A stretch of 64,000 bases of DNA from Escherichia coli (GTDB lineage Bacteria; Pseudomonadota; Gammaproteobacteria; Enterobacterales; Enterobacteriaceae). The position numbers are program-made. The first letter of the stretch is position 1. Every line of letters starts with the position of its first letter. The DNA lies in the NCBI RefSeq assembly GCF_036507355.1, contig NZ_AP027877.1; one strand, written 5' to 3'. Below, piece after piece: positions 16,801 through 19,800 of the stretch.

Positions 16801-19800
16801 ACTGCCCGGATTATCGAACCACAGCGGTGCCTGCTCATAAAGATGCAGAAGATCGACGCCGAGGTAGTTCACAATGCCGTAGCCGTTGTTGAACATGTAT
16901 TTCCAGGCGAACACCAGCGAAATAGACGGCGTTACGTAGGAGAGGATCACCAGCGAACGCGCGGTTTTGCGCAGGCGGAACTCGCGGTTGAAAAACATCG
17001 CCACTGCCAGCCCGAGCACGGTGCTGCCCGCCACCACCAACGCGGTATACCAGACCGTCATCCACAGCGAGTGCCAGAAGCCGGGATCGGAGAGAATACG
17101 CACATAGTTGCTTACCCCAACAAACGTTGACTCGATGTTGGGATTGAGCGGCAGACGTAAAAAACTGATTTCGATATTCGACACCATTGGCCACGCAACC
17201 AGACCGCCCAGCAGTAATAAGCTGGGTGCGAGAAGCAACAGCGCAAAGGGCATATCGGAACGACCTGAAAAAAGCCTGTTCATTGCGGACTCCTGTCCTG
17301 GGTTTAGTGCTGTTCGATCAGTTCATCCAGCTTTTTCTGGCTCGCTTGTAGCGTGGTAGAGAGATCGGCTTTACCCACAGTGACGTTATGCACCATGGAG
17401 CTCACCACCCCAGAACCCGTCACATCGCCCATGCGGGTAAAGTTTTTATCCCCTACTGCGCCAAAGACCTGAATATTCGGCAGTTCACCGATTAACTGAT
17501 TTGGCAGTTCACCCAGCGCCTTAATAACGTCGTTGTCTTTCCAGGTGGCAGTAGTGACAACCGCTTTGTTCACCGGCAGCGCCGCGCCTGGCGACATCAT
17601 CACCCAGTCGGCAATGTTGTCTGCCTGCTCCATAAAGGTGACAAATTTTTCTGCTGCTTCCGTTTCTTCGGTCTTTTGCCCGGCGGTAATGGTCAGCGAG
17701 GTCAACATGCCGTAGACTGCAGCGTTTTTCTCCGTTGGCACGACGAAACCGACGTTTTTCGGGTCGCCTTCTTTAATCACAGCCGGAAGGATATAGGTGG
17801 AGTAAATCGCCATCGGCGCGGTGCCGTTCATAAAGGCGTCTTTCACTTCCATGATGTCGTTAGAACCCGGCATGGTGTTGGCAGCAAGGTCGCGGTAATA
17901 GGTCAGCGCCTGCATCATCTCTGGTGTATCAAGAGTGATTTTGCCTTCGGCGTTAAAGACGTTGGCCTGGTTGGATAACGCAAACTGGGAGAAGGATTGT
18001 TCCGTCAGCACGCTTTCTGCCGTAGGCAGCGCAATACCGTATTTTTTATTCGCCGGGTCATTCAGTTTCTGTGCAACGTCCAGCAGCTGTTGCCAGTTTT
18101 TCGGCTCCTCCAGCCCCGCTTTTGCCAGCACATCTTTGCGATACCAGATGCCGCCAATCCAGGCGCTGACAGGTACACCGGTCCATGCGCTACCATCTTC
18201 GGTACGCACAATACGCAGTACGCCATCGTAAAACGCGCCTTCACCAACGTTGCTGATGACCGTGGCAACCGCTTTGCGATCGATAAGCTGCTCTTTATCC
18301 ATAACTTTGGCGTAGTCATGGCTGGTTTCGATCACTTCCGGCAGCGAGCCGCTACGTGAAAGGGTGATGACTTTAGTGTTATAAGCGTCTTCTTCCACGG
18401 GCACTTGTTTAACGGTGATACCTGGGTTTTCTTTTTCAAAACGGGCAATCAATTTGCTGATAACTGCCTGACGCTCCTGCTCCACCGAAGAATGCATAAA
18501 TTCGATGGATACATGGGTTTTATTTTCTTCTTTACAGCCTGAAATCAGGGCGCAGGAAACCAGTGCTGATAACAGCACGATTTTTGATTTAATCATGAGA
18601 TGTTCCTTTTTATTTAATCCACATAACCTGCCAGGGGCGCAGCGTTATTTCATTACCCAATATATCAACTTCACTAATCAGATCCCGACCATGCAGATCA
18701 GTAATATTTACATGCTGAATATTTTCACTGACATTAAACAATCCAGTCAGACAATTACCATCAGCGTTACTTCTTTGAATACGCATTACGGATGAATTAA
18801 CCGTATCAATGGTAAAATTATTATCCGGATGAAACTCGTTATGGCTGCGACGAAGTGTAATTAAACGCGACAACTCATGATATACCGCATGCCTTAATGT
18901 AGCTTCATCGTTCAGTTGGTGATGCTGCCAACTTACTGATTTAGTGTATGATGGTGTTTTTGAGGTGCTCCAGTGGCTTCTGTTTCTATCAGCTGTCCCT
19001 CCTGTTCAGCTACTGACGGGGTGGTGCGTAACGGCAAAAGCACCGCCGGACATCAGCGCTATCTCTGCTCTCACTGCCGTAAAACATGGCAACTGCAGTT
19101 CACTTACACCGCTTCTCAACCCGGTACGCACCAGAAAATCATTGATATGGCCATGAATGGCGTTGGATGCCGGGCAACAGCCCGCATTATGGGCATTGGC
19201 CTCAACACGATTTTACGTCACTTAAAAAACTCAGGCCGCAGTCGGTAACCTCGCGCATACAGCCGGGCAGTGACGTCATCGTCTGCGCGGAAATGGACGA
19301 ACAGTGGGGCTATGTCGGGGCTAAATCGCGCCAGCGCTGGCTGTTTTACGCGTATGACAGGCTCCGGAAGACGGTTGTTGCGCACGTATTCGGTGAACGC
19401 ACGATGGCGACGCTGGGGCGTCTTATGAGCCTGCTGTCACCCTTTGACGTGGTGATATGGATGACGGATGGCTGGCCGCTGTATGAATCCCGCCTGAAGG
19501 GAAAGCTGCACGTAATCAGCAAGCGATATACGCAGCGAATTGAGCGGCATAACCTGAATCTGAGGCAGCACCTGGCACGGCTGGGACGGAAGTCGCTGTC
19601 GTTCTCAAAATCGGTGGAGCTGCATGACAAAGTCATCGGGCATTATCTGAACATAAAACACTATCAATAAGTTGGAGTCATTACCCGTTCAGTTCTCGTG
19701 TTATCTCTTCACTGTGATATTTTTTACGGTTAATCGCACGGTTATATCCGAGTTTTTCGACACCTGCGTAATCATTACGCGAGCCCAGAATACTTTGAAT

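Follow-up and report, generated by a model that had tools for sequence, protein, structure and literature searches.

The stretch of Escherichia coli DNA analysed here, 64,000 nucleotides long and called the window below, carries ycjM, which encodes glucosylglycerate phosphorylase and stands first in the ycjMNOPQRSTUV-ompG sugar-utilisation cluster. In this strain, the gene is split by a complete copy of the insertion sequence IS1, and its two fragments lie on either side of the element. The features of the locus, in window coordinates, are as follows:

17304..18596, minus strand: ycjN, the first gene downstream, whose start lies 13 nt beyond the ycjM stop; any polarity would reach it before the other genes.
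18610..18917, minus strand: ycjM 3' fragment, codons 459-559, with the stop codon TAA at 18610-18612.
18909..18917: target-site duplication, left copy CGTTCAGTT, present as a single copy at the empty site of the sister contigs.
18918..19685, plus strand: complete IS1 of 768 bp, with insA followed by insB on the plus strand, antisense to ycjM.
18918..18940, plus strand: left terminal inverted repeat (IRL) GGTGATGCTGCCAACTTACTGAT, the 5' end of IS1.
18973..19248, plus strand: insA, 91 codons with a GTG start, one residue different from the InsA of K-12.
19167..19670, plus strand: insB' frame, 167 codons as an ORF, two residues different from the InsB of K-12.
19222..19230, plus strand: TTAAAAAAC, the A6C motif for -1 programmed frameshifting, which yields the InsAB' transposase.
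19663..19685, minus strand: right terminal inverted repeat (IRR) GGTAATGACTCCAACTTATTGAT; the IS1 terminus is its reverse complement.
19681..21066, minus strand: ycjM 5' fragment, made up of 461 ycjM codons, one Gly codon and a stop, with the annotated ATG at 21064-21066.
19686..19694: target-site duplication, right copy CGTTCAGTT, likewise single at the empty site of the sister contigs.
21077..21093, minus strand: YcjW operator-like 17-mer of the ycjM leader, ATGGGACCGCTACCACG, which holds the upstream ATG used for a count of 470 codons (see below).

The preliminary description had placed a complete 768-bp IS1 at 18918-19685, and these coordinates proved to be exact, with canonical inverted repeats at the ends and intact insA and insB' between them. 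Both arms match the degenerate canonical 23-mer pattern with 0 mismatches and agree with each other at 18 of the 23 positions. This pattern occurs three times in the window and in none of 100 shuffles, the third match being a second IS1 at 63371. The A6C motif is also intact, and the InsAB' protein built across it scores 244.8 bits on the NCBIfam model NF033558, 'IS1 family transposase' (cut-off 100). Furthermore, a promoter-like site at 18925-18952 overlaps IRL, at the place of the insA promoter. A length of about 768 bp with inverted repeats, the InsAB' frames, a duplication in the range of 8-9 bp and near-identity to an isoform were all found, which assigns the element to the IS1 family; the properties of IS1 are summarised in PMC12428005.

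The element in ycjM is identical at 767 of 768 nucleotides (99.9%) to widespread plasmid copies annotated as IS1A family. It is also very similar to the IS1A of K-12, with which it shares its length, IRL and IRR, the layout of insA and insB' with the A6C motif, the 9-bp duplication and 765 of 768 nucleotides. The three remaining nucleotides account for the one residue change in InsA and the two in InsB, and the K-12 copy lies at another chromosomal location.

The element was further said to be flanked by identical 9-mers. The sequence CGTTCAGTT was indeed found on both sides of it, with the identity ending at exactly nine bases, and a check of both strands found it nowhere else in the 64-kb window. 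A random match of a 9-mer at one fixed pair of positions has a chance of about 4e-6. For the comparison with relatives, sister contigs were identified by looking up the 951-aa YcjT-YcjU fusion, a lesion specific to this lineage that is described below, which returned seven contigs in E. coli assemblies. In all seven, ycjM is an uninterrupted gene of 559 aa. Three of them (GCA_905398585.1, GCA_021425525.1 and SRR32181686), all free of IS at ycjM, were aligned with the window and match positions 1-18917 and 19686-23579 at 99.97-100% identity, and over 15-23 kb they differ from it by just 0-5 substitutions. In the sister subject, the alignments of the left and the right flank share exactly 9 bp, at 3886-3894, and this is the empty site. 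Such an overlap in IS-free sisters is direct evidence that the duplication was made by the insertion of IS1 into ycjM; the small number of substitutions, in turn, indicates that the insertion is very recent.

The same junctions bear on the quality of the assembly. IS1 is a multicopy repeat, and a second identical copy is present in the window; it could thus be imagined that a collapsed repeat, for example, was put at the wrong site. Misplacement would not, however, leave a sequence that is single in the relatives exactly duplicated over 9 bp, nor would it give base-perfect IS ends at both junctions, and the probability left to such an artefact is negligible.

The direction of the change has also to be considered. 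If IS1 were ancestral to this small lineage and the sisters had lost it by precise excision via the 9-bp repeats, exactly one 9-mer would be left, as is seen in the three sisters, and on the site sequence alone a gain and a perfect loss look the same. For IS1, precise excision is a very rare event, and here either each of the sampled relatives or the ancestor that they share would have had to undergo it. All seven contigs with the fusion have an intact ycjM. The complete-genome search, made with IS1 in both orientations (a query with reversed IS1 included), covered 5,426 complete RefSeq E. coli genomes and found no copy of the element at the 18909-18917 site; the identity of the flanks to these genomes peaks at 97.9-99.2%, and the lineage is therefore unrepresented among them. 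This modest flank identity raised the suspicion of a Shigella origin, which was rejected: identical proteins, BED22595.1 and BED22596.1 (locus tag VEE46_23640), are labelled Escherichia coli, and the window has few IS elements for its length. Taken together, loss of IS1 from the sisters is extremely improbable, and a recent gain in the present strain is the preferred reading.

The second IS1 of the window lies at 63371-64000, upstream of ymiA/yciX/acnA, in the opposite orientation, and the window ends within it. The 630 bp that it shares with the ycjM copy are identical throughout, and relatives with 99.97% identity across the 63371 site lack it. As both copies are missing in near-identical relatives, IS1 has recently been active in this strain. 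Two single-piece matches suggest that an IS1 end occupies the 63371 junction in some unrelated E. coli genomes as well. Since the two copies are mutually inverted, an inversion between them was considered as a candidate and rejected, as the duplication is intact and the synteny with the sisters is unbroken. The intact duplication and the unchanged synteny on both sides similarly argue against any later deletion or inversion by IS1-IS1 recombination involving the ycjM copy, and they bear out the proposal that the transposition was not disturbed by recombination afterwards.

At the right junction, the reading frame of ycjM runs into the element. In the orientation of the gene, the sequence is GAA CTG AAC G/GG TAA (the slash marks the ycjM/IS1 junction), so that the product would end in E-L-N-G-stop. 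The stop codon TAA, at 19681-19683, is provided by IRR and lies three to five bases inside the element, which agrees with the earlier reading that the N-terminal part stops just inside IS1. The length of 470 codons given for that part holds as a count for the ORF at 19681-21093 (minus strand), which begins at an upstream in-frame ATG at 21091-21093. It does not hold for ycjM itself, as the first nine codons precede the annotated start MKQKITDYL and the codons derived from ycjM number 461. On the other side of the element, where about 100 C-terminal codons had been reported, 18610-18917 comprises 98 unique and 3 duplicated codons, which are cut off from the ycjM start for translation.

Excision of IS1 together with one 9-mer in silico had been named in advance as the test on which the interpretation would stand or fall. 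The two fragments joined in frame into an ORF of 559 codons (568 when counted from the upstream ATG). In the alignment to uninterrupted ycjM, which had likewise been proposed as a check, the restored product was identical at 559 of 559 residues to the YcjM of the IS-free sisters, a protein named glucosylglycerate phosphorylase by NCBI.

YcjM belongs to the sucrose-phosphorylase-like proteins of GH13. Its best solved relatives are 7QQI (E = 5e-58) and 7QQJ (E = 6e-53), both GH13 phosphorylases, and in the alignment the break after residue 461 falls at the end of the catalytic domain of both. A truncated YcjM would thus keep the barrel and lack the C-terminal domain of about 98 residues. Judged by this domain architecture, it likely loses its enzyme function. 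Exact-protein look-ups with the 461-aa and the 470-aa forms of truncated YcjM gave no match, a result from which absence of the allele elsewhere is not to be read because short-read assemblies break at IS1.

The insertion is not the only damage to the operon. With E. coli O55:H7 RM12579 as the reference, three further lesions were recognised in the genes downstream. In ycjS (12799-13674), a 180-bp in-frame deletion has removed residues 187-246 (60 codons), leaving a protein of 291 aa as against 351 aa. In the query, the BLAST segments to the left and right of this deletion share 18 bp, and this suggests slippage between short repeats as its origin. In ycjT-ycjU (9947-12802), a 68-bp deletion with its junction near 10549-10564 has joined YcjT(1-751) to the beta-phosphoglucomutase PgmB(20-219) in one ORF of 951 aa. 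The start of PgmB and its FDLDG catalytic motif are lost, and an operator-like 17-mer at 10553-10569 is retained. A protein look-up with the annotated form of the YcjT-YcjU fusion, 928 aa long, gave no match. The third lesion is in ycjV (8851-9932), where Gln139 in the LSGGQ ABC signature has become a stop codon and the gene is split into ORFs of 138 aa and 211 aa.

The IS-free sisters have these three lesions as well, which therefore predate IS1. Going by the sequences compared, IS1 was the last to strike an operon whose decay was already under way. Outside the operon, codon 86 of mpaA (about 155-883), the gene for murein tripeptide amidase, is a stop codon (CQL to C-stop-L), which splits the gene into parts of 148 aa and 84 aa, and the sisters have the same split. 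It may also be mentioned that ycjM is annotated as frameshifted in the unrelated E. coli O55:H7 RM12579 (at 19859-21537 of the sequence compared from that strain). A query with the ycj operon found no match in about 400 of the 5,426 genomes, which is consistent with the ycj cluster being dispensable.

Another point is the effect of the element on the genes behind ycjM. Transcripts from the ycjM promoter would cross about 1.08 kb of untranslated RNA, formed by antisense IS1 and the orphaned 3' end of ycjM, before they reach ycjN. On the minus strand, no sigma-70-like site was found from IS1 to ycjN or reading out of IRL. The antisense IS1 transcript is rich in C over 19660-19261 (29-36% C versus 23-24% G). 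Against polarity, terminator-like hairpins in the region are no commoner than in shuffled sequence. IS1 is known from the classical gal and lac literature to be polar in both orientations. The gap of 13 nt between ycjM and ycjN, the lack of a promoter-like site on the minus strand, the long untranslated stretch and the C-rich antisense RNA make plausible the polarity on ycjN-ycjV predicted in the preliminary description, by which Rho-dependent termination would lower transcription into ycjN. The biological weight of such polarity would be small because ycjS, ycjT/ycjU and ycjV had been damaged before the insertion.

In K-12, YcjW has been reported to bind both ahead of ycjM and in the interval from ycjT to ycjU (PMC6599011). 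The operator-like 17-mer of the ycjM leader has a second copy, ATGGGACCGCTACCACG at 10553-10569, at the former ycjT/ycjU junction, and the two copies sit where the binding of K-12 YcjW was shown (PMC6599011). By analogy with K-12, the second site hints that the distal genes may be under separate control. Upstream of the leader, a strong terminator-like hairpin at 21242-21263 (minus strand; 9 pairs followed by a T run) stands between pspE and ycjM, and it suggests that most transcription of ycjM starts at the gene's own promoter and does not come from pspE by read-through.

An opposite effect of the insertion can be conceived, namely that a promoter directed outwards from IS1 drives ycjN and the genes downstream free of YcjW repression. 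Reports from the 1980s describe hybrid promoters made up of an IS1 end and the DNA next to it, and insertions of IS elements activate silent operons such as bgl. These precedents, together with the position of IS1 between ycjN and the operator-like site at 21077-21093, would favour such a gain of regulation. Against it stands the search for sigma-70-like sites given above, and the TTGGCA of IRL has, by eye, no acceptable -10 hexamer at a spacing of 16-18 nt in the flank. Furthermore, the downstream catabolic genes are already broken, so that there is little for activation to act on. Activation of the operon by IS1 is thus very unlikely, and the insertion is best read as a neutral event in a decaying operon, not as a consequential polar mutation.

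Insertion of IS1 into this gene is by no means confined to the present strain. IS1 was found elsewhere in ycjM, or else at the beginning of ycjN, in about 48 of the 5,426 genomes, 5 times in the same orientation as here and 43 times in the opposite one; ycjM::IS1 alleles recur in E. coli. Ten such events were mapped, and they fall at ten different sites with duplications of 8 or 9 bp; the two exceptions are IS1 copies with a deleted far flank. The strains concerned include 22AR0322, AZ 186, 20KM2222, EC21Z-063, ABW_A33 and PRO_A-1443-6M-A_ESBL. Their alleles resemble the present one in lying in ycjM or the ycjN start, in having 8-9-bp duplications and in being annotated as ycjM pseudogenes, and both orientations are represented among them. 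They differ in the position of the empty site (18517, 18624, 18709, 19054, 19684, 19844, 20007 and 20059). In a literature search for ycjM and IS1, no description of the present allele was found.

Two strains come particularly close. In DP051 and PS2Canimalfeces12, IS1 has the same orientation as here, with junctions 23 bp (18886) and 4 bp (18913) away, respectively. In contrast to the present copy, in which both flanks and the duplication are intact, these two lack a duplication, and on the far side they adjoin ycjW-proximal DNA or sequence within ycjN. In DP051 and PS2Canimalfeces12, ycjN-ompG thus seems to have been lost in part or in full through adjacent deletion mediated by IS1.

A hotspot at the exact site was considered and rejected, for these nearest junctions are 4 and 23 bp off and the rest are spread along ycjM. 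The GC content near the insertion is about 41%, as compared to 51.5% for the window, and the IS1 junctions near this site suggest a regional preference. A wider proposal can be made, tentatively and with more doubt than belief: throughout E. coli, IS1 may land preferentially in ycjM, above all in the AT-richer 3' third of the gene, and several lineages in which selection is relaxed may be losing the ycj cluster step by step, in an order that can be read from the sequence. Here the loss would have proceeded through point mutations and slippage deletions and then IS1. The basis for it is three independent junctions within 32 bp (18886, 18913 and the present one), along with at least ten further IS1 events in ycjM or the ycjN start.

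As for the insertion itself, it is nearly certain that a recent and simple transposition of IS1 into ycjM has taken place, which is private to this strain among the sampled genomes and is the latest lesion of a decaying operon. An IS1 copy of the IS1A type transposed into codons 458-461 of ycjM, and the staggered cut with its repair duplicated the 9-bp target CGTTCAGTT. No recombination between IS1 copies has followed. YcjM is cut after residue 461, at the boundary of the barrel and the C-terminal domain, and gains a Gly and a stop from IRR, which very probably inactivates the enzyme; transcription into ycjN is probably lowered by Rho-dependent polarity.

The insertion is an ordinary event of a thoroughly known kind. 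For this strain, it means that ycjM is to be marked as a pseudogene, and it has little import beyond annotation. Both IS1 junctions are suited to PCR typing, so that the allele can serve as a clean strain-specific marker. The main addition to the first reading of the locus is the order of events: the integrity of ycjS, the catalytic motif of PgmB and ycjV were lost before IS1 arrived.
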